NCBI GenBank assembly: GCA_963664245.1
Contig: OY760934.1
Span: 2,498,210 to 2,562,209, forward strand
DNA length: 64,000 nt
Source of the DNA: Bacteroidales bacterium
GTDB lineage: Bacteria; Bacteroidota; Bacteroidia; Bacteroidales; GCA-2711565
Direction: 5' to 3'
Position numbers and translations under genes: made by a program
Notes under the pieces: model-generated
Told to the model about the DNA's origin: nothing
What the model saw: the letters and a program-made list of their open reading frames with translations, nothing else
The model's database searches: none
Shown here: positions 3,482-56,209 of the stretch, piece after piece
How positions within the stretch are numbered: position 1 is the stretch's first letter
Layout: each line of letters begins with the position of its first letter

Positions 3482-4306
3482 TTATTTAATGGAAAACAAT
3501 AAAGAATCTTTTTCATCTTTCAGGTAGAGCGAATTCCGGTTCATTAGCTCATCAAAATCTACCTGGTGCCCGTCAAAATCTGGTCCGTCAACACAGCAAA
3601 ACATGGTTTTGTCGCTTACTTTTACCCGGCATCCGCCGCACATTCCGGTTCCGTCAATCATAATCGGGTTCAAACTAACCATGGTGGGTAATTTATATTT
3701 TTTGGTTAGCTGGCATACGTTTTTCATCATAATAATTGGCCCGATAGCGTAAACCAGTTTAATGTCGTGGCGTTCGTCCATGTATTTTTTGAGTGGCTCG
3801 GTAACGAACCCCATTTCCCCGATACTTCCGTCATCGGAAGTAATAACCAGATCGTCGCAAATGTGCTCCATTTCATTTTGGAGGATAATCATTTCTTTGG
3901 TTTGGGCACCAATAATGCCGATCACATAATTTCCGGCTTCTTTAAAAGCTTTGGCCACGTGATGCAAAATAGCAACACCGGTTCCTCCGCCAACCATGAT
4001 TACGGTTCCTATTTTTTTGATTTCGGCAGCTTTGCCCAAGGGGCCAACAACATCTTTAATCAAATCCCCTTCGTTGAGTGAACGCATCAAAGCCGTTGTT
4101 TTTCCAACCACCTGGAAAATCAACGTGATGGTTCCGGCAAACTCATCTTTGTCGGCAACGGTGAGAGGTACGCGCTCGCCCGTATCATTTACCCGAATAA
4201 TAACAAATTGGCCTGCCTTAACTTTTTTGGCAATTTTAGGGGCATTAATCTCGAAACGGATAATGGTTCCCCTGGCCATTTCTTGTTTTCTTACTATTTG
4301 AAACAT
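3482..4306 (-). CDS. nfnA: NfnA-like (PyrK/sulfide dehydrogenase beta) FAD/NAD-binding [2Fe-2S] subunit
   Basis: AGQFVIIR, ERVPLT, VGPLG, GGGTG, MIDGTGMCGGCRV...CVDGPDFDG. Confidence 0.9.
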   Translation of the reverse strand: MFQIVRKQEMARGTIIRFEINAPKIAKKVKAGQFVIIRVNDTGERVPLTVADKDEFAGTITLIFQVVGKTTALMRSLNEGDLIKDVVGPLGKAAEIKKIGTVIMVGGGTGVAILHHVAKAFKEAGNYVIGIIGAQTKEMIILQNEMEHICDDLVITSDDGSIGEMGFVTEPLKKYMDERHDIKLVYAIGPIIMMKNVCQLTKKYKLPTMVSLNPIMIDGTGMCGGCRVKVSDKTMFCCVDGPDFDGHQVDFDELMNRNSLYLKDEKDSLLFSIK

Positions 4307-4350
4307 GGCTTTACGTTTAAATAATTAATAAAATTGAGTGATGTTGTATA

Positions 4351-5211
4351 CTACCATTCCAAACTGTCTTCCAATCTGATGTCGAATAAATCCTGTTCAC
4401 TGAGTCCGTGCCACTTACATCCTTTTTTTGTACAGATGTAGAAATCCAGCAATTTGGTTCGGGCACCTACATTAATTTTGGCAGTATCTGAACCGCATTT
4501 TTCACATTTTTTTTCTCCTTCAATTAAGCTTTTGTTGCAATGGAAACAAAGCAGGTCGCTAACAGTTTTTTCTTCTGGTAAAAAGATGGTTGATTTGGAT
4601 GTAAATACATTTAAATAAGGGCTAAGCAATAAATAGCCGCCTTCCCCATTTTTGATTTTAAGTTTTAGTTGTTCCCCTTCAATCAGGCTTTTATGGCAGT
4701 GCGGGCAGTACGATTGTAAAAATGAACCGCTTTCAATGATTTCCTGGTTATGATCCACGGGTTTTTCTATGGGTTCGGCAGGTTCTTTTCGTTTAGCACG
4801 ATGGTTCCCGGCTAAACCATAATCCTGGTAAAGTTTATTCAGGGCAACGGATAAATCTTCAAATTCGGCTTTGTGGTTTTTACAACCGCTGCGAGAACAA
4901 AAAGAAATTTTGCCGCCCATATCCATGTGAACATAGCTCATGGGAGCATCACAACTTAAACAGGAGGTTTGGTCTTTAAGTAATGCACTACAATGCGGGC
5001 AAGAAAATGAAGCAATTTCTCCCAGGGGTAATTCTAAATTGCTCACGTAATTGTAGCTTCCATAAATCGAACTTAAATTGATCGTTCCCTTTGTTCCTGC
5101 AATTTCAACATTAAGTTTGATACTTGGTTCGTTGTCTACTAGTTTTTGTTTATCCATCAGCGATTTGCTGCAAACCGGACATTTTACTTTTAAGGCTAAG
5201 AAGTCGTACAT
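4351..5211 (-). CDS. Uncharacterised protein made of two tandem Cys-rich (putative metal-binding) domains
   Basis: Two repeats of CxxC...CxxC...CxxC...Cx4CxxH. The second repeat is clearly homologous to the N-terminus of the NfnB-like protein. Confidence 0.8.
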   Translation of the reverse strand: MYDFLALKVKCPVCSKSLMDKQKLVDNEPSIKLNVEIAGTKGTINLSSIYGSYNYVSNLELPLGEIASFSCPHCSALLKDQTSCLSCDAPMSYVHMDMGGKISFCSRSGCKNHKAEFEDLSVALNKLYQDYGLAGNHRAKRKEPAEPIEKPVDHNQEIIESGSFLQSYCPHCHKSLIEGEQLKLKIKNGEGGYLLLSPYLNVFTSKSTIFLPEEKTVSDLLCFHCNKSLIEGEKKCEKCGSDTAKINVGARTKLLDFYICTKKGCKWHGLSEQDLFDIRLEDSLEW

Positions 5212-5499
5212 AGGTGTAGTGTTTATTAAATAACAATAAATCTTTAAAAATCAGGCTTTTCCTATACAATATATAAGGAATTTTTTTGTAAATTACAAGT
5301 AGTGAGGCTGTTAATCGTTTTTAACTAAGGTGCTTCTTTTAGCCGGATTAAATTTATTAATCAAAGAATGAATTGGTTAGGCTAATTGGCTCTTCTAATT
5401 TATAGTTGTTATAAATAAAAGTCAAGGCCTTGTATTGGGGCGAAATTTAAAAAAATAAAGGTTTCGGTTTGTGAATCAATTCACAAGCGTTATCTGAGA

Positions 5500-42186: not shown

Positions 42187-43335
42187 TTAATCTGCAGCAA
42201 TAAATCCGAATTTAGTTAGTTCGTCTCTGTTTATCCATCCAATAATAGAATCAAATCTGATCTCGTAAGTATCATCATTGTCTTCATGTTTGATTAATTT
42301 AACATTTTTATTTGGTTCAACTTTATAGATAATAAAATTTGGTATTTTATCTTTTGCAGCAGCAGAGGTTTGATAAACAATAACCGTATCAGATGGCGAA
42401 ACATATCTTACATATTGTCGTTCATCTAATGGCAGGGCTTTTAGTTTCTTGGTGATTGTGTTGTAATGGTATATTCTTGTAGACCAATCTGTCAAAAAAA
42501 AGTCAGTTCTCTCGCTTGTTGTAAATTTTAAGGTTGAGTCATTTAAGTAACAGAGCTGATCTATTGTTATAGATCGATTTAATAATTTTACAAATTCACC
42601 TTTATTATTAAATCCTAAAATAACATCTTCATCATCATCACTATATCCATATAAGTGTATGAGCATTTCATCTCCTTCTCCGCCAATATATCCTTTATCA
42701 ATGTTTTTAATTTTAATCTGATTTTCTTTCAATTGGCCTACATCAACCATTTCAATATAGCCAATAGAATTCTCAACTAAAAACTCTGGTGGAATTGTTG
42801 TACAATCAAATGTCCAAAGCATTGTTGTATCTAACAAAATAAATGCAGCATCAAAAAAATCATTTGGCCTTTCGTTTAATACTTGTGGATCCCAACCAAT
42901 GTAAAACAAAGGATATCCATTAAAATTGTATTTGTAAAGAATTTTGCGGTATTCTACTTTTCCATAGTTTTCTTCAATATGTTTTAAGGTGTCAATAGTT
43001 CGAATCATTTTTCTATCAGAAAAAGATTTAAAGGATTTATTTTCTTTATACCAGTTTTGATTTTTGAAAAACAATACAAGGTTTGTGTCTTGAAACGGGT
43101 ATCCTTTTTTTGCAAAATATTGATTGCGCGAATACCTGATAAAGCTGGAAGAAAAATACTCCAGGTCTTTGATTGCTGTTCTGCCGGTCAATGTTTCAAC
43201 GCTATCAATAAGAATTGTTTTTTCAGCTTTTTTCTCACCTTTTGATTCCGTTGAGTTTAAGGCTTGTTTCGTTTCTTGATTACATGAAACGAAAACTATA
43301 AAAACAATGAAAATAAACAGATAAAGATTTCGCAT
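42187..43335 (-). CDS. Lipoprotein with YARHG-like domain and possible C-terminal SH3-like domain
   Basis: Lipobox FVSC; RNQYFAKKGYPF...FFKNQNWY; YEIRFDSIIGWI. Confidence 0.65.
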   Translation of the reverse strand: MRNLYLFIFIVFIVFVSCNQETKQALNSTESKGEKKAEKTILIDSVETLTGRTAIKDLEYFSSSFIRYSRNQYFAKKGYPFQDTNLVLFFKNQNWYKENKSFKSFSDRKMIRTIDTLKHIEENYGKVEYRKILYKYNFNGYPLFYIGWDPQVLNERPNDFFDAAFILLDTTMLWTFDCTTIPPEFLVENSIGYIEMVDVGQLKENQIKIKNIDKGYIGGEGDEMLIHLYGYSDDDEDVILGFNNKGEFVKLLNRSITIDQLCYLNDSTLKFTTSERTDFFLTDWSTRIYHYNTITKKLKALPLDERQYVRYVSPSDTVIVYQTSAAAKDKIPNFIIYKVEPNKNVKLIKHEDNDDTYEIRFDSIIGWINRDELTKFGFIAAD

Positions 43336-43379
43336 ATAAATAATTTTTTAGCCCGTTGTTTTTATTGAATAATAAATTA

Positions 43380-44093
43380 TCAGTCACAATCGCAGGAGTA
43401 TAATTCAATACAATTATTTTTGATTGTTATTTTAATCTCCCCGGTAGCTCCTGTTCCTGTGAATGTATACGTCTGATTTTTCAGTCCTTTTAATTTGGGT
43501 GTTTCATATTCAATGCCCATGATTGTATCAAGAACAAAAGTGTGGCGGGCTATCATGATGTGAAAAACCTCATTAAAAGATAATTCCTTGAAAATATGCA
43601 AATGATTAAAACAACCATCATTCTGGGTGTAAATGTATTCCCCTCTTTCGTATAAAGTTATTTCATCTTGTACAACAATTTTCTTTCCTTCAGTTTTAAT
43701 GGTTCTTTCAACTTTTTTGAATCCAATCCTTTTTCCAAACAAGACAAAATAATTTAAATCATAACCATCGAATTTGTTTTTTAATAAGCAATTATATTTT
43801 GAGCAATCTCCACTAAAAACAAACCCAACATTTCCATTATATCTAACTTTTTGCCAATGGCCTTTTAAGACTACCCCTGAAATAGTTTTAGAAACCTTAT
43901 CTTCCATACGGTTTTCTAAAAGTAAAAGAACCGAATTTAATTTAGGATTATCAAGTATTTTTGAATCAAAAAAAGGTTTCTCAAATAATTCCGTTCCATT
44001 GTAATTTAAAACATAAATCGAATCAGAATTTAATTGAGAAAATGAAATAAGAGGCAGAAGAAACAATAAAAAAAAGCCAATAAATTTTTTCAT
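43380..44093 (-). CDS. Exported protein with SH3b-like domain
   Basis: Signal peptide; GHWQKVRYNGNVGFVFSG. Confidence 0.6.
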   Translation of the reverse strand: MKKFIGFFLLFLLPLISFSQLNSDSIYVLNYNGTELFEKPFFDSKILDNPKLNSVLLLLENRMEDKVSKTISGVVLKGHWQKVRYNGNVGFVFSGDCSKYNCLLKNKFDGYDLNYFVLFGKRIGFKKVERTIKTEGKKIVVQDEITLYERGEYIYTQNDGCFNHLHIFKELSFNEVFHIMIARHTFVLDTIMGIEYETPKLKGLKNQTYTFTGTGATGEIKITIKNNCIELYSCDCD

Positions 44094-44106
44094 AAAATCA
44101 ATTTTT

Positions 44107-44244
44107 GATTTGTCCCGGGGAGAAAAACAAATCCGTTTTTGAATTAGGGTAAATGTATTAAAAATTCTTAATTAGACAATGTAACGAATTAACGATATAA
44201 TAATTTTTGATTTACTGCTTGCTGCCACTGCTACTGCCAACTTT
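44107..44244 (-). repeat. Promoter-like box + leader hairpin, copy B (L1; direct repeat of 57653-57786)
   Basis: GATTTGTCCCGGGGAGAAAAACAAATCCGT...GGTAAAT...ATGTAACGAATTAACGATATAATAATTTTTGATTTACTG...CTGCCAACTTT. Confidence 0.85.
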
Positions 44245-44321
44245 TTAAAGTCAGTATATCTAAAATGATTCAAAATTAGGTCTTTGGTAGGTCCGGGAGG
44301 TGATTGGATAAAATTATTTTT

Positions 44322-44329
44322 TAAGTTTG
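44322..44329 (+). promoter_or_regulatory. Bacteroidota -7 box upstream of aprB
   Basis: TAAGTTTG, 54 nt before the aprB ATG. Confidence 0.5.
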
Positions 44330-44383
44330 TGCAAATTATAATGAATTGGATTATAATTCTTAATCAAATAAAAAACCTAGATT

Positions 44384-44818
44384 ATGCCAAGTTTTGTGAT
44401 TAATGAAAAGTGCGATGGTTGTAAAGCTCAGGATCGCACCGCCTGCCAGTATATTTGTCCGAACGATTTAATGGTGCTGGATAAAGAAAAAAACAAAGCC
44501 TATAACCGTGCCGTGGATATGTGCTGGGAATGTTATAGTTGTGTAAAAATTTGTCCGACCCAGGCCATTGAGATCAGGGGGTATGCCGATTTTATGCCCC
44601 TGGGAGCTACGGTTCAACCCATGCGAAGCACCGATGCCATCATGTGGTCGGTTCGTTTCCGTAATAAAAAAATCAAACGGTTTAAGTTCCCCATCCGTAC
44701 AACCGAAGAAGGAAGCATCCAGCCTGATGCCGGATTCTCTACCGGAACCGATGATTTGCACGATCCGCACCTGAGAACCGAACCCGATTCTATCGGAACC
44801 GATTTGTACAAAAAATAA
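44384..44818 (+). CDS. aprB: Adenylylsulfate (APS) reductase beta subunit
   Basis: MPSFV...CDGCKAQDRTACQYICPNDLM, CWECYSCVKICP, RGYADF, FKFPIRTT. Confidence 0.96.
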   Translation: MPSFVINEKCDGCKAQDRTACQYICPNDLMVLDKEKNKAYNRAVDMCWECYSCVKICPTQAIEIRGYADFMPLGATVQPMRSTDAIMWSVRFRNKKIKRFKFPIRTTEEGSIQPDAGFSTGTDDLHDPHLRTEPDSIGTDLYKK

Positions 44819-44840
44819 ATCCTCATTAAAACCTCTTGAC

Positions 44841-46727
44841 ATGAATATCGATAATTTTGAAACCATACAGATAGAAACCGATTTGTTAATCTTAGGCGGT
44901 GGCATGGCTGCCTGCGGGGCTGCTTTTGAGGCATCGCATTGGGCCAAAAAACACAATATGAAAGTCACGGTTGTGGATAAGGCTTCATTGGAAAGAAGTG
45001 GTGCCGTTGCCATGGGGCTTTCCGCCATTAATCTTTATTTGGGATTGAAAAATGGCAAAAACACCATCGAAGATTATGTAAATTATGTGAAGACCGATTT
45101 AATGGGTATTGCCCGCGAAGACTTGGTTGCCAACATTGCCCGCCATGTGGATTCCACGGTTCACCTGTTTGAAAAATGGGGCTTGCCGATTTGGAAAGAT
45201 GAAAAAGGAAATTACGTGAATGAAGGTCGCTGGCAAATTATGATCCATGGCGAATCGTATAAAAATATTGTTTCGGAAGCCGCCAAAAACGCTCTCAAAG
45301 AATTGGACGGAAACGGTGAATATTATGAACGCATTTTTATTACCGAACCCATTATGGATGGCGACCGTTGTGTGGGAGCCGCCGGGTTTAGTGTTCGCGA
45401 AAACAAATTTTATATTTTCAAGGCAAAAGCCGTATTGGATACCATGGGTGGAGCTGTGCATGTGTTCCGTCCGCGCTCGGTGGGCGAAGGTTTGGGACGT
45501 TCGTGGTACCCGCCTTTTAATTCCGGGGCAAGTGCTTATTTTACCCTGAAAGCCGGGGCCGAGATGACCTGCCAGGAAGTGCGTTTTGTGCCGGTTCGGT
45601 TTAAAGATTCTTACGGTCCCGTAGGTGCGTGGTTCTTGTTGTTCAAATCAAAAGCCACCAATGCCAAGGGCGAAGATTATATGGAAACCCGTAAAGCCGA
45701 ACTCGAAAACTGGGCTCCTTACGGAACTGCCAAACCCACCCCCGCCAACCTTCGGAATTACCTAATGATGCAGGAAGTGGAAGAAGGCAACGGCCCGATT
45801 TACATGAAAACCGATGATGCTATCCGCGAATTGGTTGCCAACATTCCGGATGAAAAAGAAGCCAAGCGCAAATTAAAAGAACTGGAATCGGAAGCCTGGG
45901 AAGACTTTTTGGATATGACGGTGAGTCAGGCTCTGAACTGGGCGGCACACAACATCATGCCCGAAGAAACACCTTCTGAAATTGCTGCTTGCGAACCCTA
46001 CTTTATCAGCTCGCATTCGGGAGCATCCGGGGCATGGATCAGCGGTCCGAAAGATTTGGCTCCCGGTGAAAAATTCTGGGGCTATCCCAACATGACAACC
46101 ATCAAAGGATTGTTTGCGGCCGGCGATGCCAGCGGGGCATCTTCTCATAAATTCTCTTCCGGCTCTTTCACCGAAGGACGGATTGCAGCCAAATCGGCCA
46201 TTGCTTTTTGCGCCGATCATGAGGCTCCGGCAGCTACCGATACTGAAAAAATAGAGGAACTGAAGAAACGTATTTTGCAACCCCTGGCAGTTTTCGAAGA
46301 GCATAAAGATTATGCCAACGACGAGGATGTAAACCCGAATTTTATCAAGCCTAAAATGTTTATGTTCCGTCTGCAAAAAATTATGGATGAGTATGCCGGG
46401 GGAGCTTCGGTAGGATTTAAAACTTCCAAAGCTTTGCTTGAAAAAGGACTGGAATTTTTGCAATACATGAAAGAAGATTCGGAAAAACTGGCGGCTTCAA
46501 ACTTGAATGAGCTGATGCGTTGCTGGGAGAATATCCACCGCATGTGGCAGGCCGAATCGCATCTTCGCACGGTATTGTTCAGGGAAGAAACCCGCTGGCC
46601 GGGCTATTATTTCCGAACCGATCATCCGCAAATGAAGCCCGATTGGGAATGTTTTGCCAATTGTAAATGGAACCCCGAAACCAACGAGTGGGAAATGATG
46701 AAACGCGAGATCGAAAGTATGAAATAA
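44841..46727 (+). CDS. aprA: Adenylylsulfate (APS) reductase alpha subunit
   Basis: GGGMAACG, ERSGAVAMGLSAIN, WQIMIHGESYK, RFKDSYGPVGAWF, EAWEDFLDM, HKFSSGSFTEGR, FREETRWPGYY. Confidence 0.97.
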   Translation: MNIDNFETIQIETDLLILGGGMAACGAAFEASHWAKKHNMKVTVVDKASLERSGAVAMGLSAINLYLGLKNGKNTIEDYVNYVKTDLMGIAREDLVANIARHVDSTVHLFEKWGLPIWKDEKGNYVNEGRWQIMIHGESYKNIVSEAAKNALKELDGNGEYYERIFITEPIMDGDRCVGAAGFSVRENKFYIFKAKAVLDTMGGAVHVFRPRSVGEGLGRSWYPPFNSGASAYFTLKAGAEMTCQEVRFVPVRFKDSYGPVGAWFLLFKSKATNAKGEDYMETRKAELENWAPYGTAKPTPANLRNYLMMQEVEEGNGPIYMKTDDAIRELVANIPDEKEAKRKLKELESEAWEDFLDMTVSQALNWAAHNIMPEETPSEIAACEPYFISSHSGASGAWISGPKDLAPGEKFWGYPNMTTIKGLFAAGDASGASSHKFSSGSFTEGRIAAKSAIAFCADHEAPAATDTEKIEELKKRILQPLAVFEEHKDYANDEDVNPNFIKPKMFMFRLQKIMDEYAGGASVGFKTSKALLEKGLEFLQYMKEDSEKLAASNLNELMRCWENIHRMWQAESHLRTVLFREETRWPGYYFRTDHPQMKPDWECFANCKWNPETNEWEMMKREIESMK

Positions 46728-46755
46728 AGAGCATAAAAAACGGAGGCTGAGACGG

Positions 46756-46780
46756 TCCTTGAGCGGAGTCGAAGGGAGTC
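46756..46780. repeat. Single REP-like unit at the left border of the AT-rich insert
   Basis: CCTTGAGCGGAGTCGAAGGG, same family as the 39377 and 41011 elements. Confidence 0.55.
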
Positions 46781-46875
46781 AAAGCTGAAGTGTTTGAATA
46801 GTTGCAGGAGACAGTTGGCAGAAAGCAGCAAGAATTACTAAAGGGTTCTATCCATTGTGTTTTTTTTACAAAAAA

Positions 46876-46908
46876 TTTGCTATAATACAATTTTATGTAC
46901 TATATTTG
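46876..46908 (+). promoter_or_regulatory. Consensus Bacteroidota sigma-A promoter of the insert
   Basis: TTTG (46876-79), 21-nt spacer, TATATTTG (46901-08). Confidence 0.7.
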
Positions 46909-46939
46909 CATAATTGTAGTTAATTTATATGAGATTATA

Positions 46940-47173
46940 ATGAAAAATATAGATGTTAAAAGAGAAAGATTTGAAAAAGTTGCTAGTAAAAGAACACAAC
47001 TCTTATTGGATACATTTGATAAGCTTATAAAATGTTCAAATAGGAATAATTATGAATATAGTGAAGAAGATATTAAAAAGATGTTTAAAACCATCAAAGA
47101 AAAATTAAAGTATGTTGAAAATGCATATCTACAAGAGTTACAAAAAAACATAAAAAACAAATTTGAGTTTTAA
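46940..47173 (+). CDS. Small helical protein, possible regulator (start revised from 46895 to ATG 46940)
   Basis: MKNIDVKRERFEKVASKRT...LIKCSNRNNYEYSEEDIKKMF. The longer ORF start would overlap the promoter box. Confidence 0.7.
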   Translation: MKNIDVKRERFEKVASKRTQLLLDTFDKLIKCSNRNNYEYSEEDIKKMFKTIKEKLKYVENAYLQELQKNIKNKFEF

Positions 47174-47205
47174 TTTTTAATAAAAATATTATAAACAATG
47201 AACTA

Positions 47206-49029
47206 TTGTTTATGAATACAAATAATATAAATGTAAAATATGATATAAAACGAATTTTATCCAATCTTGATGAAATGGATACAGATAAGTTGAATAATGA
47301 GTTAAAATTTAAATTTAAGACTTTATCTGTAAGGAGTTATAATGCAATTTTTTATTATCTAGAAAAGGATATTTCAATAACAAATTATTTTGAGTCAATC
47401 ATTAATTACAAGAACTTTAATTTTAGAAATATAAGAAACGTAGGAAGTAAAAGTATAATAGAACTTGAGCTTTTACATGAACAAATTATTTCATTAATAT
47501 ACGAATACGATCAATTCCACTCTAAGAACGAGATCAAAGATGAAATTAAGAATCGCCCTTATTTTAATTTAGTATCATGTTTAGATAATGAAGAAATATT
47601 TTTATTGAACAAGTATTTAGAAGTTAAAATTGATAGATTAACTGCTCGCTCAAGAAATGCATTAAATGATTATCTCAATCATGAAGTAAGTTTTAAGAAT
47701 TATTATGAAAACATCATTAATAACGAAGCTTTAAGATTTTGTAAACTAAGAAATATTGGTGTAAAAACTATTAAAGAATTAGAGCTTTTACATAGTGAAA
47801 TTATTTTCTATTTATCTGACATAAAGTCAAAGAGAAATAAAAGAGAAGAATATTATAGTTTTCTTTTAGAAGATTTATTTAATCTTAGTAATGATCAAAA
47901 AATAGAATTAAAAGGATATTTATGTGAGAACAAAATACCCATTTTTAAAATTATTTGGTATATAATTGAAAACACTTCTCTATTCAACAAAACACAAAAG
48001 TTAGTTTTTAAAAATATTTTTCTATACAAAGAAGATAATCATCAATTAACACTTTCAGGAATAGGTGAAATTACCAATCTGACAAGAGAAAGAGTTCGCC
48101 AAATTCGAGTAAAATTACTAGAAAATATTTCAAACTTATTTGAATTTGTATCTTATTTCAACTATAATCATATCAATACATATAAAATTAATAAAAATCA
48201 AAATATAATTATTATTAATAATTCTACTGCACAAGAAATATGTAAAAATGAATTGGTTAATTTTTCAAGCTTGTTCTATGAAATAATATTCTCAATATTA
48301 TTAAGAAAAACTCATAAAATTATCGAAATTGAATACATAAAAAAAGCAAAATTCTCACATAATTACCTGATAAAAAGTAGTTTATTTTTTGCCTTCGATT
48401 ATAAATCATTTTTGAATGATATGTTTGATGGGCTTAACGAACGAGTAAAAAATTCCTATAAAATAAATCTGAAGGAATTTATATCATGTTATTATAATGA
48501 AATATATCAAACAGAATTTAAAGAAGTATATGCCACTGTAAAAGAAATTTTGCAAATAGAGCATAACATCATTGTCGATAGTAATGATTATATATTGATC
48601 GAAAAGAATACTCCGATATTAGCACATGAATATGTACTTAAAATTCTTCGATATTACAAAAAGCCAATGCACTACACAGAAATTTACGATGAATGTATTA
48701 AACGTGGTTACCCCGCAAAGTCGCCACTAAATGTACACGCTAATATTCAGAGAGAACCAAAAATATTTGGCTTAAAAGGACCAGGCACCTTCGGATTAAT
48801 TGAATGGGGTGAATATTATGGCTCAATAGGTGATGTAACGGAACAAATTTTGAAAGAAAGAAATAAGCCAATACGATTAAAAGATATAGTTGAAATAATA
48901 AGTAATGAATTGATTGTCTCTCAAGATTCCATTCCAAACGTACTCTTTAATTATAAACATGAAAAAAGATTTTTGAAACTTAGAAGCGGTAAAGTTGCTT
49001 TAAAGGAGTGGTATGACATTAATAAATAA
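47206..49029 (+). CDS. Multidomain protein: 2x RNAP alpha-CTD-like, sigma-70 region-4 HTH, C-terminal HARE-HTH/delta-like winged helices
   Basis: LSVRSYNAI...IRNVGSKSIIEL and LTARSRNAL...LRNIGVKTIKEL; LTLSGIGEITNLTRERVRQI; ILRYYKKPMHYTEIY and ILKERNKPIRLKDI...VALKEW. Confidence 0.8.
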   Translation: MFMNTNNINVKYDIKRILSNLDEMDTDKLNNELKFKFKTLSVRSYNAIFYYLEKDISITNYFESIINYKNFNFRNIRNVGSKSIIELELLHEQIISLIYEYDQFHSKNEIKDEIKNRPYFNLVSCLDNEEIFLLNKYLEVKIDRLTARSRNALNDYLNHEVSFKNYYENIINNEALRFCKLRNIGVKTIKELELLHSEIIFYLSDIKSKRNKREEYYSFLLEDLFNLSNDQKIELKGYLCENKIPIFKIIWYIIENTSLFNKTQKLVFKNIFLYKEDNHQLTLSGIGEITNLTRERVRQIRVKLLENISNLFEFVSYFNYNHINTYKINKNQNIIIINNSTAQEICKNELVNFSSLFYEIIFSILLRKTHKIIEIEYIKKAKFSHNYLIKSSLFFAFDYKSFLNDMFDGLNERVKNSYKINLKEFISCYYNEIYQTEFKEVYATVKEILQIEHNIIVDSNDYILIEKNTPILAHEYVLKILRYYKKPMHYTEIYDECIKRGYPAKSPLNVHANIQREPKIFGLKGPGTFGLIEWGEYYGSIGDVTEQILKERNKPIRLKDIVEIISNELIVSQDSIPNVLFNYKHEKRFLKLRSGKVALKEWYDINK

Positions 49030-49034
49030 ATCAC

Positions 49035-49694
49035 ATGAATGAAAATATAAAGTTGCGAATTGCCAAAACAAGTGAATTAGAAAGTCTTAAAAAACTCTCA
49101 ACCGAGAAACTAATTATCTGGATCATTGGCAAAAGTAGAGAGCTAAATTTAACTTTTTCTGTTGAGGAAATTGTAATAGAATCGTGGTTGATTAATCCAG
49201 AAAAACACGCTTTGCGTGGTTTTCCTCAATTTCCAGACAGTAATTCAGTTGCAAAACGTATTGGTGAGATGAAAGGTAAAAAAGGCTTGCTAAGAGGTTC
49301 AGATATGATAGGATATCATTTGACAGAAATTTCAAAAGTAATCTATCAAGATTTAGTTGAATTAATAAAACATAAAAAGGTTATAGAGAAGAAAGGTGTA
49401 AAAGCTGCAAATCGAAATATCTTTTCAATTGATGAAACTCCTTATAATAAGCTGAAAAAAACTCCTGTATACATTAAAGTAAAAGAAAAAAAATATAATG
49501 AAATTGTTGAAACAGATTTTCTCTATTTCTATGGAATAAATTGGCACTCAAAAACAAGTTTTGTACAGAGCAGGTTAAAAAATATAGATATGATAGTTGA
49601 AGAATTTTCTAAAAATGATCCAATATTATTGGAGGTACATACTATATTGAATGAGAAATTCCAGAACATTAAAAATCAATTAATCAAAAAATAA
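49035..49694 (+). CDS. Hypothetical protein, possible winged-helix N-domain
   Basis: FSVEEIVIESWLINPEKHALRGFPQFPDS...GYHLTEIS; 5-nt and 2-nt gaps to its neighbours. Confidence 0.65.
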   Translation: MNENIKLRIAKTSELESLKKLSTEKLIIWIIGKSRELNLTFSVEEIVIESWLINPEKHALRGFPQFPDSNSVAKRIGEMKGKKGLLRGSDMIGYHLTEISKVIYQDLVELIKHKKVIEKKGVKAANRNIFSIDETPYNKLKKTPVYIKVKEKKYNEIVETDFLYFYGINWHSKTSFVQSRLKNIDMIVEEFSKNDPILLEVHTILNEKFQNIKNQLIKK

Positions 49695-49696
49695 CC

Positions 49697-51484
49697 ATGA
49701 CAAATTTAGTTGAAACAATAGGTATAACAGAGGTGCCTGCTAATTTAGGTAGATTGTTAGAAAACCAATTAAAAAAATGGAAAGGTGGAAGTCATCACCC
49801 AAGAGGGATTGCAGAATATATAACAAACTCTGATGATTCATATCGTAGGTTAGACAAGTTTATAGATCAAAATATTTATGTGGAAATTCATTCAAGACGA
49901 GGCAAAATGATTGATAAATTGATTATTAAAGATTATGCCGAAGGAATGTCTTTTGATGATTTAGAGAATAGATTCTTTAGATATTTTGAAAGCTTTAGCG
50001 GTAGAGAAAAGGGAGAAAAAGTTACTAGACAGTTTGGTACTGGAGGAAAAGCATATGCTATTATGAACTTCAGAAAATGTTGGATTATATCTATACAAAA
50101 TAATAGAGAATGTAAAGCGTGGTTTGAATGGGATTATGAAAACAAAAGAATTATAAAAGGTTATAATAATGGAGGTTATAAGGATAAACCAACTCAAGAA
50201 AAAAACTCAACTATTCTCATTTTAGAAAATAGTTATAAGGTCAACCAACCTTTAGAAGATTTAGTTAAACACATAGAAAAGTTAGCCAGAATCCGTCATG
50301 TATTAAAGCAACAAAATGTTTTTGTTACTTTAAATCGAAAAGGAAAGAATAAAAAAATTGAACTGGAATATAAGCAACCACTTGAAACTGATGCAAAACG
50401 AATATGGAGATATAAGTTACCAAATAACCTTTTTAATTCTAATGAAGATTCTGATTTAGTTTTGAGATATTTTGGAAAACCTTTAAATGGAGATGATTTT
50501 ATTGATTTAACTGATGGAATTTCTAGCGTTGCAGATTTACATGTGACTAAATTTGATAATCGACCTTTTGCAAACTCATTTAATGGTTCATTATTATTAA
50601 CTAAATTGCTAGACTCTAGTGCAGTACGAGAAAACCGAAAAGGTTTAGAAGAAGATGATGATTTGACTATCGATATTGAAGAATTTATAAAGGTTTGTGT
50701 AAAGGAATCAATCAATGAAGTAGAAGAGGAACAAAGACAAATTGATAAAGAGAGAAAATTAGATGCTGCAAATAAAAAACTTAAAGAACTAAGTAAATTT
50801 TTAAGTAAGAAGGATCTTAAATTTAGGAGTGAGTTAAAAGAGTTGCGTAAAAGGTTCCAAAATATAGAAGAAGATGATGGTAATTTTGATGAGAGAAATG
50901 ATGATTCACCCTTTGTTAGTGATATTTATAGAAAGCCTATACCTGAGGACAATGAAGAAGAGTTGATAAAAGGGAAATGGGTAGATAGAAAAGGAGAAAA
51001 TGGAGGAGGGGAAAGTGATGGAGTTCAGGAATTTGTACCAGATGATGATGGTGAAGAATTTGCTGTAAAAGTAAAGAATAATAAATCAAAGAAGACAGTT
51101 TCGAAAAAACAGAAACAAGGACTAATTGTTCTAATGTCAAATGATGAAGATAATCCTGAGAGTATAAAGTTTACTGAATTTGATGATCCAGTTAGTGATC
51201 GTGATCTAGAAACAAAAGGCATAATTTGGATAAATTCTGTTCATCCTATTACTTCCAGGGCAATAGAGAAAAAAGATAAAAATCCGGCATTATTTGATGA
51301 AAATATATCAAATCTGGTATTAATGATTGTTGCACAATATTATGCACAAAAAGAAAACGAAATGCTACCTGAAGATGAAAAAGATGATAATCAAACTTTA
51401 ATGCTTTTCAGAAAATATTTCTTTGATTTACAAAGAGAAATAAGGGAAGATAAGGAGATTTCATACTTTGAAGGAGATAAATAG
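49697..51484 (+). CDS. GHKL (HSP90/MORC-like) ATPase with acidic coiled-coil C-terminal half
   Basis: IAEYITNSDDS (motif I), IKDYAEGMS (II), RQFGTGGK (III). Confidence 0.78.
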   Translation: MTNLVETIGITEVPANLGRLLENQLKKWKGGSHHPRGIAEYITNSDDSYRRLDKFIDQNIYVEIHSRRGKMIDKLIIKDYAEGMSFDDLENRFFRYFESFSGREKGEKVTRQFGTGGKAYAIMNFRKCWIISIQNNRECKAWFEWDYENKRIIKGYNNGGYKDKPTQEKNSTILILENSYKVNQPLEDLVKHIEKLARIRHVLKQQNVFVTLNRKGKNKKIELEYKQPLETDAKRIWRYKLPNNLFNSNEDSDLVLRYFGKPLNGDDFIDLTDGISSVADLHVTKFDNRPFANSFNGSLLLTKLLDSSAVRENRKGLEEDDDLTIDIEEFIKVCVKESINEVEEEQRQIDKERKLDAANKKLKELSKFLSKKDLKFRSELKELRKRFQNIEEDDGNFDERNDDSPFVSDIYRKPIPEDNEEELIKGKWVDRKGENGGGESDGVQEFVPDDDGEEFAVKVKNNKSKKTVSKKQKQGLIVLMSNDEDNPESIKFTEFDDPVSDRDLETKGIIWINSVHPITSRAIEKKDKNPALFDENISNLVLMIVAQYYAQKENEMLPEDEKDDNQTLMLFRKYFFDLQREIREDKEISYFEGDK

Positions 51485-51550
51485 AACAATGGACTTTATG
51501 TAAATGAAATTTATGCAAATTCTGACCATATTCATATTTTATGTCTTTGA
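51485..51550 (+). pseudogene. Fragment of an IS200/REP-associated (HUH) tyrosine transposase
   Basis: Manual translation NNGLYVNEIYANSDHIHILCL*, containing the DHIHIL HUH motif; REP hairpins follow. Confidence 0.55.
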
Positions 51551-51551
51551 G

Positions 51552-51607
51552 GCAGGATTTCGTTTCACTTCATCCTGCTTTATTACCTAAAGGGGCGTTG
51601 CCCCTTA
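51552..51607. repeat. Two REP-like hairpins at the right border of the insert
   Basis: GCAGGAT-TTCGTTTCACTTC-ATCCTGC and AAGGGGC-GTT-GCCCCTT. Confidence 0.6.
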
Positions 51608-51687
51608 TTGTTAGAACGAAAAGCAAAGCGGTTTTTATTATTTCATAAAACACTATTTTATAGCCTGTTTTATTAAGCTTGTTTTTT

Positions 51688-51695
51688 TATATTTG
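51688..51695 (+). promoter_or_regulatory. Bacteroidota -7 box upstream of qmoA
   Basis: TATATTTG, 60 nt before the qmoA TTG start. Confidence 0.55.
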
Positions 51696-51755
51696 CCAAG
51701 CATTGCAGTTGAGGCAATTGTTGATTTTTAAAATGGTCTGCTAAATAAAAAATTA

Positions 51756-52988
51756 TTGGGAAAGAAAAAATATAAGCCAATATTAGTCGTCGGAGGTGGA
51801 ATCAGCGGGGTAACAACCGCTGTTGAACTTGCCGAAGCCGGGAAAGAAGTTATTCTGGTAGAGCAGAAACCTTACCTTGGCGGCAATGTAATCCGGATGA
51901 ATAATTATTTCCCTAAACTTTGTCCGCCTGCCTGTGGACTGGAAATAAATTTCCGCCGAATCAAACAAAATCCGCGCATCAAATATTTTACTTCTTCAAG
52001 TGTGCTTGATGTTTCGGGAGAGAAAGGGAGTTTTTTTGTAAAGCTCAGAACCGAACCTCAATTTGTAAAAAATAATTGTACCGCTTGCGGAAAATGCGTG
52101 GAGGTTTGTCCGGAAGAACGCCCCGACGAGTTCAATTACGATCTTGCCAAAACCAAAGTTATTTATCTTCCTCACGAGATGGCCTTCCCGATGAAATACC
52201 ATATTGACGAAGCCTTTTGCAAAAAGGAAAACTGCAATAAATGTGTGGAGGTTTGTGAATACCGGGCCATTGATTTTTCTGCAAAAGAAGAAATCCAAAC
52301 CCTGGAAATTTATTCGGTTGTTTTTGCCACGGGCTGGAAAAATTATGAAGCCTCAAAAATTGAGAACCTGAATTATAATTCGTCGGCTGATATCCTCACT
52401 AATGTAGAGTTCGAACGATTGCTGGCACCCAACGGGCCGGGCAAAGGAAAACTTTTAAAACCCTCGGATCAAACAGAACCTAAAGAAATTGTATTTGTAC
52501 AATGTGCCGGTTCGCGCGACGAAAATCATTTACCGTATTGTTCTGCAGTGTGTTGTTCGGCTTCCTTGAAGCATGCATTGAATGTTTCGGAACTATTGCC
52601 GGACTGCAAGATCAAAATTTTTTACATCGATTTGCGGGTAGCCGGCCGGAATGAAGATTTTTTAAAACGAGTGGAAGCGCAGAAAAACATTGATTTAATC
52701 AAAGGAAAAGCCGGGAAAATTGAGGTGGATGCTGAAACAAAAAAGCTGATTGTTGAAGCAGAGGACATCAAGCAAGGTAAAAAAATAAAACAACAGGCCG
52801 ACCTGGTGGTATTGGCAACGGGCATTGTTCCCAATCATTTGTCAGTCGATTTGGAACTTGACAAAAACGGATTTTTAAGTATCAATCAAAAAGAAGGAAT
52901 TCGGGCTGTGTCGTGCAGCAAAAAACCCATGGATGTTTCAGCATCGGTAAAAGATGCCACGGCTGCGGCCCTAAAAGCAATTCAATAA
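51756..52988 (+). CDS. qmoA: QmoA (HdrA-like flavoprotein)
   Basis: GGGISG, KLCPPACG, CTACGKCVEVC, VQCAGSRDENHLPYCSAVCC, PMDVSASVKDATAAA; 410 aa; near aprBA. Confidence 0.92.
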   Translation: MGKKKYKPILVVGGGISGVTTAVELAEAGKEVILVEQKPYLGGNVIRMNNYFPKLCPPACGLEINFRRIKQNPRIKYFTSSSVLDVSGEKGSFFVKLRTEPQFVKNNCTACGKCVEVCPEERPDEFNYDLAKTKVIYLPHEMAFPMKYHIDEAFCKKENCNKCVEVCEYRAIDFSAKEEIQTLEIYSVVFATGWKNYEASKIENLNYNSSADILTNVEFERLLAPNGPGKGKLLKPSDQTEPKEIVFVQCAGSRDENHLPYCSAVCCSASLKHALNVSELLPDCKIKIFYIDLRVAGRNEDFLKRVEAQKNIDLIKGKAGKIEVDAETKKLIVEAEDIKQGKKIKQQADLVVLATGIVPNHLSVDLELDKNGFLSINQKEGIRAVSCSKKPMDVSASVKDATAAALKAIQ

Positions 52989-52996
52989 ATTAACGG

Positions 52997-55111
52997 ATGG
53001 TGGAAAAGAAAACAGGCATATACATTTGTTCGGGATGCGAAATCGGGAATTGCATGGATGTAGAAAAACTTTGCACCCTGGCTTCCGAAGAGTTGAAAGC
53101 AGTTGATGTACAAACCCACCCGGCTTTATGTTCGGTGGAGGGCTATGACCTCATCCTAAAAAATATTGAAGAACAAAAACTGGATGCCGCCATTATTGCG
53201 GCCTGTTCGCCACGGGTTAAAACGGAGGTGTTTGATTTCCCGGAGCATGTTTTGGTAGACCGGGTTAATTTGAGGGAGCAGGTTGCCTGGAGTTTTGAAC
53301 CCCGGGACGAAGACACGCAGATGGCTGCCGAAGATTACCTGCGGATGAGTGTGGCTAAAATTCAACACATAAAAATTCCGGAGCCTTACAAAGCCGAAAA
53401 TTGCAGCAATGAAATTTTAGTGGTGGGCGGAGGTGTCAGCGGAATCACGGCCGCATTGCAGGGAGCGAAAGCCGGTTATATGGTTCACCTGATCGAAAAA
53501 GAAAATCAGCTGGGCGGAAGGATGAACGATTTGTTTAAACTTTATCCTTCGGTGTCGCCGTTTAATGAGTTGGCTGAGCCTGGATTGGAAAGCAAACTGA
53601 ACGAGCTCAATAGCTTCGAAAATATAAAAATTTATACCTCTACAACGGTAGAAGAAATTAAGGGCGAACCCGGAAATTTTGAGGTGAAACTCAGCGAAGG
53701 AAGAACCTTAAAAGTGGGAGCCATTGTGGCTGCGATGGGATGGAAACCTTACGATGCCGCTAAATTGTCCCACCTGGGTTACGGAAAATCCGATAAGGTG
53801 GTCACTATTTTGGAATTTGAGAAAATGGTGAAAGAAAATCCTGCTCTCAAAATCCCCGAAAACATTTTGTTTATTCAGTGTGCTGGTTCGCGCGATAAAA
53901 ATCACCTGCCTTATTGCTCGGGCTATTGTTGCAGCACTTCGCTGAAACAAACTAAATATATCCGTGAGCTAAGCCCGGATTCTTCGGTATTTATTGTTTA
54001 TAAAGATATTCGAACCCCCGGCTTGAGCGAAGAATTTTATAAGGAGGTTCAAAAAGACAGCCAGGTTTTCTTTACCAAAGGCGAAATTGACGAGGTGCTT
54101 GTTGAAGAAAATAGCCTGACAGTAAAAGTTAAAGAAACCCTTTTGGGCGAAGATATTTCTTTGTCGGTAGATATGATTGTGCTGGCTACCGGAATGACCC
54201 CTGCCGGGACGGAAGATTTGAACTTGAGTTATCGTTTGGGCAAAGGTTTGCCCGAGTTGAAATATAATTTTTCGGATTCTCATTTTATTTGTTTCCCTTA
54301 CGAAACACGCCGAACCGGCATTTATGCCGCAGGTAGTTTGCGGGCTCCAATGGATATCAGTGCCTGCGAGGAAGATGCTGCCGGAGCCATGTTCAAGGCC
54401 ATCCAGTGTGTAGAAGCTACCAAAAGAGGAGAAGCTGTTCATCCGCGTTCGGGCGATCGCTCTTACCCCGAGCTGTACATGGATCGCTGTACCGATTGCA
54501 AACGCTGCACCGAAGAATGTCCTTTTGGGATGTACGATGAAACCGAAAAAGGAACGCCGCTCCCGAATCCGGCCCGTTGCCGGAGGTGTGGGATTTGCCT
54601 GGGTTCTTGCCCTGAACGGGTTATTAGTTTCTCGGATTATTCCATTGGCAGCATTTCGTCCATGATTAAGGCGGTGGAGATCCCCGATGAGTTTGAAGAA
54701 AAACCGCGCATCCTAGCGTTTGTTTGCGAGAATGATGCCTATCCGGCTCTGGATATGGCAGGAACCAAAGGCTTAAAATACAGTCCGTATATCCGGGTGA
54801 TCCCGGTGCGTTGTTTGGGTTCCATTAATAAAGTTTGGATATCCGATGCCCTGTCGTGTGGTTACGACGGCATCTTGCAAATTGGTTGTAAGCCCGGCGA
54901 CGATTACCAGTGCCACTTCATCCACGGAAGTGAATTAACAGAAACCAGAAGCGAAAACATCCGGGAAACCCTGGAAAGTATGATGCTGGAACCTGAACGC
55001 ATACAAACCGAATTTGTGGAGATCACCGATCACCAGAAAATTCCGGGGATTATTAATGATTATATTGAAACCATTGAAGATATTGGTCCGAATCCGTTTA
55101 AAGACATGTAA
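52997..55111 (+). CDS. qmoB: QmoB (HdrA-like + ferredoxin + MvhD-like domains)
   Basis: SHFICFPYETRRTGIYAAG, CTDCKRCTEECPFG, CRRCGICLGSCP, FVCENDAYPALD, PVRCLGS, GCKPGDDYQCHF. Confidence 0.95.
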   Translation: MVEKKTGIYICSGCEIGNCMDVEKLCTLASEELKAVDVQTHPALCSVEGYDLILKNIEEQKLDAAIIAACSPRVKTEVFDFPEHVLVDRVNLREQVAWSFEPRDEDTQMAAEDYLRMSVAKIQHIKIPEPYKAENCSNEILVVGGGVSGITAALQGAKAGYMVHLIEKENQLGGRMNDLFKLYPSVSPFNELAEPGLESKLNELNSFENIKIYTSTTVEEIKGEPGNFEVKLSEGRTLKVGAIVAAMGWKPYDAAKLSHLGYGKSDKVVTILEFEKMVKENPALKIPENILFIQCAGSRDKNHLPYCSGYCCSTSLKQTKYIRELSPDSSVFIVYKDIRTPGLSEEFYKEVQKDSQVFFTKGEIDEVLVEENSLTVKVKETLLGEDISLSVDMIVLATGMTPAGTEDLNLSYRLGKGLPELKYNFSDSHFICFPYETRRTGIYAAGSLRAPMDISACEEDAAGAMFKAIQCVEATKRGEAVHPRSGDRSYPELYMDRCTDCKRCTEECPFGMYDETEKGTPLPNPARCRRCGICLGSCPERVISFSDYSIGSISSMIKAVEIPDEFEEKPRILAFVCENDAYPALDMAGTKGLKYSPYIRVIPVRCLGSINKVWISDALSCGYDGILQIGCKPGDDYQCHFIHGSELTETRSENIRETLESMMLEPERIQTEFVEITDHQKIPGIINDYIETIEDIGPNPFKDM

Positions 55112-55114
55112 AAA

Positions 55115-56209
55115 ATGATAGCGATTAAACCGGACATAAAATTTAAAAAGGCGTTGATGGAAAGCAGCGGTTCGTCTTTGAGCGAATGTATGCAGTGCGG
55201 CAATTGTTCGGCGGTGTGTTCGCTGGCTCCCGAGGAGCGGCCTTTCCCGCGCAAGGAAATGATTTGGGCCGCCTGGGGGTTGAAAGATAAATTGATTGCT
55301 AATCCCGATTTGTGGCTCTGCCATCAGTGTGGCGATTGCAGCAGCTATTGTCCGCGCGATGTAAAACCCGCCGACGTGCTGGCTTCCGTGAGGCAGCAGA
55401 GTTATTTGCAGTTTGCCCGCCCGGCTTTTATGGGAAAATTGTTGAGCAAACCGGCCTGGCTTCCGGTGGCAATTTTAATTCCGGTGCTTATTATTTCGGC
55501 TATTTTGATGTTGGCCGGAACCTTTACCATTCCTGAAGGCTCGGTGAATTATTCCAAATTTTTTCCGCATGCCTGGTTAAACGGTTCGTTTTCTTTACTA
55601 ACATTTTTATCGTACGGAATTGCGGTCACGGGTTTTGTAAAGTTTTATCGCCAGATGAAATCGCATTTCCCGGGTTCCTCTAAAAAAACAAGTTTCTGGA
55701 AAAGCGTGATACAGGTTAAAATGGAAGTGTTGAGGCACTCCAAATTTGCCGATTGCAATTCTCAAAAGACACGAAGAACGGCTCACTTTCTGGTGTTTTA
55801 CGGATTTGCATTGTTGTTGCTGGTAACGCTCTATGCCATTGTTGCCGTGATTATTGGAGCCTACCCGCTGGCTTTAAGCAACCCGTTTAAAATTATTGGC
55901 AATCTTGCTTCGGTGATGCTGCTTGTTGGACTGGGGATTTTTATATACATCCGTTTGTTTGATAAGCGGGTGATTGGCAAAAGCATTTACCCCGATTGGC
56001 TGTTACTGCTTTCTTTTTTCCTGCTTACCCTTTCGGGAATTTTGGTGCAGTTTGCCCGTTTTGAAAACTGGAGCTTTGCTTACCATTTCTATTTCTTCCA
56101 TTTGCTGTGCGTATGGTTTGTGATTATTTATTTGCCCTACACCAAATTTGCCCACATGGTTTACCGCTTTATCGCCCTGACTTTTGCCAATGGGATTGGG
56201 AGGAAGTAA
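55115..56209 (+). CDS. qmoC: QmoC (2x[4Fe-4S] + membrane heme-b domain)
   Basis: CMQCGNCSAVC, PFPRKEMIWAAWG, WLCHQCGDCSSYCPR, TM helices with AHFLVFYGF, FFHL, YTKFAHMVYR. Confidence 0.95.
   Translation: MIAIKPDIKFKKALMESSGSSLSECMQCGNCSAVCSLAPEERPFPRKEMIWAAWGLKDKLIANPDLWLCHQCGDCSSYCPRDVKPADVLASVRQQSYLQFARPAFMGKLLSKPAWLPVAILIPVLIISAILMLAGTFTIPEGSVNYSKFFPHAWLNGSFSLLTFLSYGIAVTGFVKFYRQMKSHFPGSSKKTSFWKSVIQVKMEVLRHSKFADCNSQKTRRTAHFLVFYGFALLLLVTLYAIVAVIIGAYPLALSNPFKIIGNLASVMLLVGLGIFIYIRLFDKRVIGKSIYPDWLLLLSFFLLTLSGILVQFARFENWSFAYHFYFFHLLCVWFVIIYLPYTKFAHMVYRFIALTFANGIGRK

Follow-up and report, generated by a model that had tools for sequence, protein, structure and literature searches.

A GHKL ATPase module with exchangeable upstream genes inserted between aprA and qmoA in a Bacteroidales bacterium

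In the anti-phage operon Mza (MzaABCDE), a sigma-70-related protein occurs together with a GHKL (MutL-like) ATPase, a pairing shared by the locus described here. This locus is a block of four genes, which we call G1 to G4, lying between aprA and qmoA in a 64,000-nucleotide (nt) stretch of the genome of a Bacteroidales bacterium (contig OY760934.1, positions 2,498,210 to 2,562,209; hereafter, the window). G1 is a small protein, G2 a protein with several helix-turn-helix (HTH) modules, G3 a predicted winged-helix protein, and G4 a GHKL ATPase; G3 and G4 form a conserved unit behind exchangeable upstream genes, which we refer to as heads. We read the block as a recent, horizontally acquired copy of a modular conflict system of the toxin–antitoxin (TA) or abortive-infection type, a reading that we hold at roughly even confidence. 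Unlike a component of Mza, G2 matches the NCBIfam MzaA model over no more than 30 region 4 residues, at 16.2 bits, against a cut-off of 800; no PADLOC Mza model matches any of the four proteins, and Z1 and AIPR genes are absent from the block.

The nearest published precedent that we found is VapKSC, in which a GHKL kinase phosphorylates a STAS antitoxin and thereby releases VapC (PMC13373217). The operon is reported to act as a phage-responsive TA system that gives about 2 logs of protection against one phage, and only 36% of its copies are found close to other defense genes (EMBO J 2026, PMC13373217). Like VapKSC as described there, the module is sporadic and, in relatives of the window locus, places a GHKL protein, a small partner, and a PIN/VapC protein in one operon. 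Unlike VapKSC, in which VapK joins a STAS domain to an anti-sigma-type kinase and VapS is a STAS protein, it pairs an Hsp90/SMCHD1-like G4, whose structural neighbors are Hsp90 and SMCHD1 and not anti-sigma kinases, with a winged-helix G3. No STAS domain was found in G1 to G4 by Pfam at E ≤ 1, the PIN protein of the relatives has its own MazE/AbrB antitoxin, and the version in the window has no PIN protein. The logic proposed for the module is similar to that of VapKSC, with proteins unrelated in domain content.

Three further families invite comparison. The prokaryotic MORC/paraMORC proteins of the GHKL-S5 type (Iyer, Abhiman & Aravind 2008, PMC2292703) resemble G4 in their GHKL fold, ATP motifs, alpha/beta transducer domain, HATPase_c_3 match, and sporadic occurrence as an accessory gene. 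Unlike the members found in restriction-modification loci, the module has no linked methylase, restriction endonuclease, or helicase in the block or its flanks. The 2008 paper has no partners of the G3, G1, G2, or AbrB-PIN kind, and its text gave 0 occurrences of "PIN domain," "toxin-antitoxin," or "winged." In Tiamat (10.64898/2026.09.30.754977) and VcSduA (PMC12137116), a GHKL/GHL ATPase is thought to gate swappable effectors, as we propose for G4; each of these consists of one large protein to which the effector, PD-(D/E)xK or another, is fused, Tiamat also having DUF3684, whereas Pfam gives HATPase_c_3 only for G4, PADLOC gives no match, and the effector would be a separate gene. The third comparison is with type II VapBC: in most relatives the head consists of a MazE/AbrB antitoxin and, after it, a VapC-like PIN toxin that is catalytically intact, its acidic residues being conserved. 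Unlike an ordinary VapBC pair, this one keeps a fixed place upstream of G3-G4, within an operon of four or five genes, and in the window G1 replaces it.

A sequence-only reading of the window had proposed the block as a candidate defense module and could not assign it to a named system. The absence of a named match is borne out: no PADLOC v2.0.0 model gives a credible match for any of the four proteins, no NCBIfam r20 model matches G1 to G4 above its cut-off, and full-text searches of the literature turned up no published description of this gene set. We class the block as a putative GHKL-ATPase-based, TA-linked conflict module that no named system matches.

Domain composition of the four proteins

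The four genes are co-oriented on the forward strand and tightly packed, with gaps of exactly 32, 5, and 2 nt, as the sequence-only reading had reported. The last of them, G4 (49697-51484; 595 residues), is an Hsp90/SMCHD1-like GHKL ATPase with intact ATP motifs. Pfam assigns HATPase_c_3 at 30.2 bits (cut-off 25), and residues E40, N44, D47, D79, E82-G83, G114-T115-G116-G117, and T172 are invariant in 24 homologues, among which mean column identity is 58% across phyla. We read these positions as GHKL motifs I (ExxxNxxD), II (DxGxG-like), III (the glycine-rich lid), and IV (GT), the numbering being our own. An AlphaFold (AF2) model, with a mean predicted local distance difference test (pLDDT) score of 78.4, shows a Bergerat fold at residues ~1-205, an alpha/beta middle domain at ~207-310, a 68-residue helix (324-391), an acidic linker of low confidence, and a conserved C-terminal domain. 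In Foldseek, the best PDB matches of this model were the SMCHD1 ATPase (6mw7), at E 2.6e-10 over 382 columns, and many Hsp90s, over 350 to 430 columns. A G4 profile gave 0 hits against PDB sequences, and the C-terminal domain (405-595) matched only unnamed clusters in the ESM Atlas. There were 137 full-length relatives among the candidates scored; the matches listed are 43 to 61% identical over 97 to 100% of the length, with annotations no more specific than "ATP-binding" or "hypothetical."

G3 (49035-49694; 219 residues) is the obligate partner of G4. It is matched by nothing in Pfam, NCBIfam, or the PDB sequences (0 hits for its profile), and its mean column identity across phyla is 67% in 12 sequences. 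Its AlphaFold model (pLDDT 85.6) shows a winged HTH followed by a helical domain. The Foldseek matches of this model are weak and of the MntR/IdeR/MarR winged-helix type (best E 0.038), IdeR aligning over 85 columns at 1.9 Å. G3 is thus, by its predicted fold, a winged-helix protein of an unnamed family. A wider family of G3-like proteins of ~200 to 230 residues (P0138-P0270; 250 clusters at E ≤ 1e-3) carries the motif F/W-L-x-P-x-K-x-S-L-x-G-Y-x-x-(F/Y)-P-D. Its clusters come from short marine and other metagenome contigs, none of 10 clusters gave a Pfam match above cut-off, and of 401 Bacteroidota genomes 2 matched, one being the window's own. Complex prediction for G4 with G3 gave scores of 0.15 and 0.20, where the mark is 0.32, and is counted here neither for nor against their pairing.

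G2 (47206-49029; 607 residues) contains, from its N terminus, two alpha-CTD-like helix-hairpin-helix repeats, a sigma-70 region 4, a middle region, and two HARE-HTH domains. The first repeat (residues 40-87; 47323-47466) matches PF03118 at E 9.4e-4, below cut-off, and the second lies at residues ~140-205. An alignment of 12 homologues shows the repeat motif LSxRxxNxL...RNCGxKT, and the number of N-terminal repeats varies between homologues. The region 4 HTH (residues 264-306; 47995-48123) matches PF04545 at 26 bits, with a cut-off of 24.1, and a profile of the 12 homologues finds region 4 of RpoD, RpoS, and SigA in PDB (E 1.9e-8, profile positions 257-305). Among these PDB matches are structures in which sigma region 4 is bound by anti-sigma proteins of phage or host origin. 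The C-terminal HARE-HTH (residues 541-602; 48826-49011) matches PF05066 in 2 stretches at E 2.2e-9; the first copy occupies residues ~470-535, and the homologue at locus L001 matches in that copy. The middle region has no conserved catalytic-type residues in the alignment of 12. The domain calls of the sequence-only reading were sound: Pfam gives RNA_pol_A_CTD, Sigma70_r4, and HARE-HTH in G2 and HATPase_c_3 in G4, and the model of G3, though its Foldseek matches are weak, has a winged helix at the N terminus. G2 does not look like a sigma-70 factor, which would have regions 2 and 4: region 4 alone is matched by Pfam and the PDB profile, and the full-length sigma models of NCBIfam all score far below their cut-offs. 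It is composed only of nucleic-acid-binding and RNA polymerase (RNAP)-interaction modules.

G1 is a conserved 77-residue protein that ends at 47173; of two possible starts, 46895 and 46940, the latter fits the homologue alignment better and is used here (46940-47173). Its hidden Markov model (HMM), built from 3 rows of which one is out of frame, found homologues at E 4e-39 to 7e-16. The 7 homologues share 59% mean column identity and invariant residues R8, R10, F11, R18, C32, N34, Y38, and D44. G1 is apparently helical and belongs to no family in Pfam, the ESM Atlas (only unnamed clusters), or a PDB-profile search; PDB-profile matches to helical proteins (best E 0.018) were rejected as uninformative.

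A conserved G3-G4 unit and its exchangeable heads

All open reading frames (ORFs) in a census of 95 related loci and the window, drawn from 16 species-genome loci, 78 metagenome loci, and the locus of genome G004, were searched with HMMs for G1 to G4, PIN, and MazE/AbrB. Of the 67 loci that have room for it (750 nt or more), 62 have G3 immediately upstream of G4, as do 48 of 51 once near-identical loci are collapsed. The three exceptions among the 51 are L073, L087, and L015, whose G4 is N-terminally truncated. Most often the two genes overlap by 4 nt, and 43 of 49 spacings fall between -8 and +12 nt; G3 and G4 are probably translationally coupled. The conserved unit is therefore G3-G4, with an exchangeable upstream head and an optional G2. 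Co-occurrence of all four genes in other genomes had been proposed as a check on the block, and it was answered in part: the full G1-G2-G3-G4 set recurs intact in L001, L039, and G004 (L033), but the unit conserved across the census is the smaller G3-G4 pair.

The heads were counted in 75 non-redundant groups, of which 47 have enough upstream sequence and 28 have too little. MazE/AbrB-PIN alone is the head in 19 groups and a PIN cut by the contig end in 6; MazE/AbrB-PIN-G2 and G1-G2 account for 4 groups each and G1 alone for 3. In another 9 groups G2 has no recognized head upstream, mostly because the sequence is cut, and 2 groups (L062 and L071) have no recognized head despite room for one. 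An AbrB-PIN or PIN head is thus present in 29 of the 47, and G1 and PIN occur together in 0 loci, which makes G1 an alternative head to MazE/AbrB-PIN. Pfam confirms the PIN and MazE domains in 9 of 9 proteins tested, and the PIN proteins form one subfamily with conserved acidic residues (26 sequences). Since most relatives carry MazE/AbrB-PIN at the place of G1, nucleases belong to the wider system. The sequence-only reading had recognized no nuclease motif in the window's version.

Several loci depart from these arrangements. L062 (376-996) and L071 (5594-6268) encode a ~207- to 225-residue protein without a G1, PIN, or AbrB match that looks like a third head, and in L062 and L005 a short protein near G3 resembles, by eye, the winged-helix part of G3. 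At L002, a DDE transposase gene (3860-5425) lies directly upstream of G2, at the usual place of G1 or AbrB-PIN, and the head there may have been displaced by an insertion sequence (IS). The metagenome contig of L105 (1-3662) carries two modules in tandem: the end of a G3-G4 pair, with G4 split, runs straight into the AbrB-PIN-G2 genes of the next.

Three supported clades appear in a quick maximum-likelihood tree built from 47 full-length G4 sequences, each of them unique; split, truncated (<560 residues), and identical sequences were excluded. The G1-only loci and Delongbacteria form one of 6 rows; all G2-bearing loci, the window included, form one of 14 rows (Shimodaira–Hasegawa-like approximate likelihood-ratio test [SH-aLRT] 97); and the AbrB-PIN loci without G2 form one of 27 rows (SH-aLRT 99). 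Within the G2 clade, G1 and PIN heads are interleaved. The most identical relative of the window's G4 is that of L036 (60%) and the nearest by tree path that of L034, both of which have AbrB-PIN-G2. The single G2 clade and the interleaved heads together indicate that G2 was gained or lost once and that the heads have been swapped repeatedly. Hosts are scattered sporadically over Bacteroidota, Verrucomicrobiota, Ignavibacteriota, Thermodesulfobacteriota, and Delongbacteria.

This conservation bears on whether the block does anything at all. Some copies are decayed (L012, L014, and L015 are frameshifted or truncated), and ORFs are split in several short metagenome contigs, as would be seen if the block were non-functional debris or decaying foreign DNA. 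In the window, however, all four ORFs are intact; homologues from distant phyla keep 43 to 61% identity over 97 to 100% of the length, the active-site motifs are invariant, and gene order is conserved, so we find the debris explanation scarcely credible.

The TA pair carried by the module in most other bacteria suggests that it probably serves defense or another form of genetic conflict. The same linkage to a classical VapBC-like pair would also suit a tripartite or quadripartite TA addiction or stress module with no anti-phage role, in which G4 acts as an Hsp90-like chaperone or ATP switch and G3 as a transcriptional autoregulator. The two would govern how stable the head is or how strongly it is expressed, much like the chaperone of toxin–antitoxin–chaperone systems, and the module would thereby promote its own persistence or a stress response. 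Hsp90 chaperones are among the best structural matches of G4, and copies of the module stand as solitary, TA-like islets among housekeeping genes with no clear defense-island signal. Yet the G1-G3-G4 and G1-G2-G3-G4 versions lack any known toxin, and the known toxin–antitoxin–chaperone systems use SecB-like chaperones and are not known to use GHKL proteins, which also counts against this explanation. We consider addiction without an anti-phage role, the main rival to our reading, unlikely; many TA systems are defense systems, so the two readings overlap.

Insertion between aprA and qmoA

In the window, aprB (44384-44818) and aprA (44841-46727) precede the block, and qmoA (51756-52988), qmoB, and qmoC follow it. 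The sequence-only reading held that the block interrupts a normally contiguous aprBA-qmoABC, and two observations bear this out. In genome G036, a relative of the same order, aprB, aprA, and qmoA are consecutive, with an aprA-qmoA gap of ~190 nt. Contigs of four public runs were compared with 43000-56000. Two of these runs, X4 and X6, come from one sample, and each has one contig (side 49 and side 65, respectively) in which position 46727 is joined to 51772, so that 5044 nt are missing. The segment missing from this empty-site form, 46728-51771, extends from the aprA stop codon to ~16 nt inside the annotated qmoA. Against 43003-46727, the X6 contig (record 17) has 179 differences (~95% identity), which together with the joint identifies it as a sister strain with an empty site. 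The insert itself is also present in the same runs, with at most 1 difference. The block is thus a recent, strain-level insertion, the ends of which are approximate.

Composition agrees with the abrupt AT-rich shift noted from the sequence: GC content falls from 0.46 (46400-46799) to 0.225 (46800-47199), stays at 0.20 to 0.33 in the interior of the block, with the four genes at 22 to 32%, and returns to 0.435 at 51800-52199, the genome mean being 37.8%. The module was found in 2 of 13 genomes of the genus, the window's own genome (G000) included, and in 2 of all 41 genomes searched. The other same-genus copy, in G004, is 55 to 56% identical and occupies a different site, so the two are independent acquisitions. 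The G004 copy ends ~370 nt before a tRNA-Gly(CCC) gene (L033 11271-11344), which hints at tRNA-proximal insertion; no integrase was seen in the listed ORFs of that locus, and the window has no tRNA genes.

A strain-level insertion of strongly deviant GC content could also belong to a small mobile element, either as its cargo or for its maintenance. DNA clamping or silencing by the GHKL clamp and its DNA-binding partners, for example, would then serve the upkeep of the element or the exclusion of competitors. The tRNA-proximal copy in G004, the IS transposase at the place of G1 in L002, and matches to DDE_Tnp_1_6 and DDE_Tnp_1 among 138 flanking proteins (2 each) fit such an origin, as does the reported compaction of DNA by SMCHD1 and MORC relatives. 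Against it, the window shows no integrase, recombinase, or terminal repeats next to the block, and no copies were found in the plasmids, phages, and viral contigs searched. We consider a mobile-element role very unlikely.

A role tied to the site itself is highly improbable. The block could in principle be a local regulator of aprBA-qmoABC, with G2 reprogramming qmo transcription, a view favored only by the position between aprA and qmoA and by the RNAP-like modules of G2. The apr and qmo genes lie near none of the other loci, whose contexts are unrelated; G036 and the sister strain have aprA-qmoA without the block; and G2 lacks sigma regions 2 and 3.

The sulfur genes show signs of a separate history. 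The aprBA-qmoABC cluster (44384-46727 and 51756-56209) is patchy and GC-rich (0.41 to 0.52, against 0.378 for the genome). Of 40 relatives, G036 alone has a qmoA orthologue (63% identity). In G005, qmoB is present at 80%, and a contig ends with the last 24 residues of qmoA; the other same-genus genomes hold only HdrA-like paralogues at ~35%. The cluster was probably itself acquired as an island and split only later, by the block. Downstream of G4, two terminator-like hairpins (51550-51606; -10.6 kcal/mol, z -2.25, and -11.4 kcal/mol, z -1.43) and an AT-rich spacer of 150 nt within 51485-51755 separate qmoABC from aprBA, and the annotated start of qmoA is TTG.

Two other features claimed from the sequence fared less well. 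A promoter-like TTTG-N21-TATATTTG element (46876-46908, including TGcTATAAT at 46878-46886) does lie before the block, its TATATTTG part ending 32 nt upstream of the G1 ATG, and fits the Bacteroides-type consensus. The pattern has one full match in the 64-kb window, where 2.76 are expected by chance, and a generic sigma-70 scan gave 41 sites against 33.9 ± 5.3 expected. Because 97 of 100 shuffles of the window also contain at least one match to the pattern, position alone makes the element suggestive. Repetitive extragenic palindromic (REP) units at both borders are rejected. In the 3.73-Mb genome, no significant second copy of either border spacer was found, and the right border has only the two terminator-like hairpins. 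The left border has a GC-rich hairpin (46745-46786) whose fold is not distinctive (z -0.97); within it is a single copy of a GC-rich 14- to 17-nt motif (46760-46776) that occurs 5 times in the genome and belongs to no REP family. The other copies, at genome C1 positions 614076, 2341407, 2363784, and 2914334, lie in the loop or stem of small hairpins, and 5 copies far exceed chance for a 15-mer; the motif is a low-copy intergenic repeat. Direct or inverted repeats flanking the block were not found. Just upstream of aprB, on the reverse strand (42187-44093), two AT-rich genes (~0.30 GC) encode signal-peptide proteins, one with a YARHG domain and one without a family; in composition this flank, too, departs from the genome mean.

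Proposed mechanism and biological meaning

Reading the block as a TA- or abortive-infection-type conflict system rests on gene content, conservation, modularity, mobility, and fold assignments. In favor of defense, the module is sporadic, moves horizontally, is modular, is often TA-linked, often decays, and uses an ATPase class found in several known systems. Other results weigh against it. The four nearest genes per side at 19 loci (138 proteins) are mostly metabolic or housekeeping genes. Their matches to defense models are one Type I REase, two SduA, and one mREase_IV, counts given without a background rate; the defense-island enrichment put forward as a check gave no clear signal. In the window, the scanned neighbors include a PAP2 protein, Obg, a phosphoribosyltransferase, PurE, a YARHG-domain protein, a transglutaminase-like protein, and a LytTR protein, among others, and neither an integrase or transposase among them nor a target duplication was seen. 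Searches of 50,697 phage records, 72,556 plasmids, and viral contigs yielded no copy of the module. No toxin or nuclease was recognized in the window's own version, and the structural matches of G3 are weak, as described above.

We infer the binding of one part to another, the trigger, the output, and any anti-phage effect from these observations as follows. G3, together with G2 where present, would bind DNA or a cue derived from the invader, and ATP-driven dimerization of G4 would be the switch. The head would supply the output, through release of the PIN RNase in most relatives and through G1 in the window, and the outcome would be growth arrest or interference with the invader.

A more specific version concerns G2. 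The alpha-CTD, sigma region 4, and delta-like surfaces of RNAP are seized by phage-encoded factors, and the alpha-CTD-like, region 4, and delta-like HARE-HTH modules of G2 could offer the same surfaces as a decoy. A G3-G4 clamp gating interchangeable outputs, the PIN toxin or G1, would then fire when a phage hijacks transcription. The idea that G2 is a sensor mimicking RNAP, which the sequence-only reading had raised, is speculative, with some support from the RNAP-interaction modules of which it is made, and we judge the full decoy scheme clearly unlikely.

If functional, the module would represent a new GHKL conflict architecture in which a two-protein core has recruited exchangeable heads, VapBC among them, in at least 5 phyla. 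The same core with PIN, with G1, and with or without G2 is a natural experiment on the recombination of sensors and effectors. It would also give a possible function to two unannotated families, G3 (~250 clusters) and G1, and the mosaic of RNAP modules in G2 is a testable candidate for a guard or decoy sensor of phage transcription takeover. Whatever the module does, its insertion splits aprBA-qmoABC in this organism and must either supply or disturb the promoter of qmoABC.

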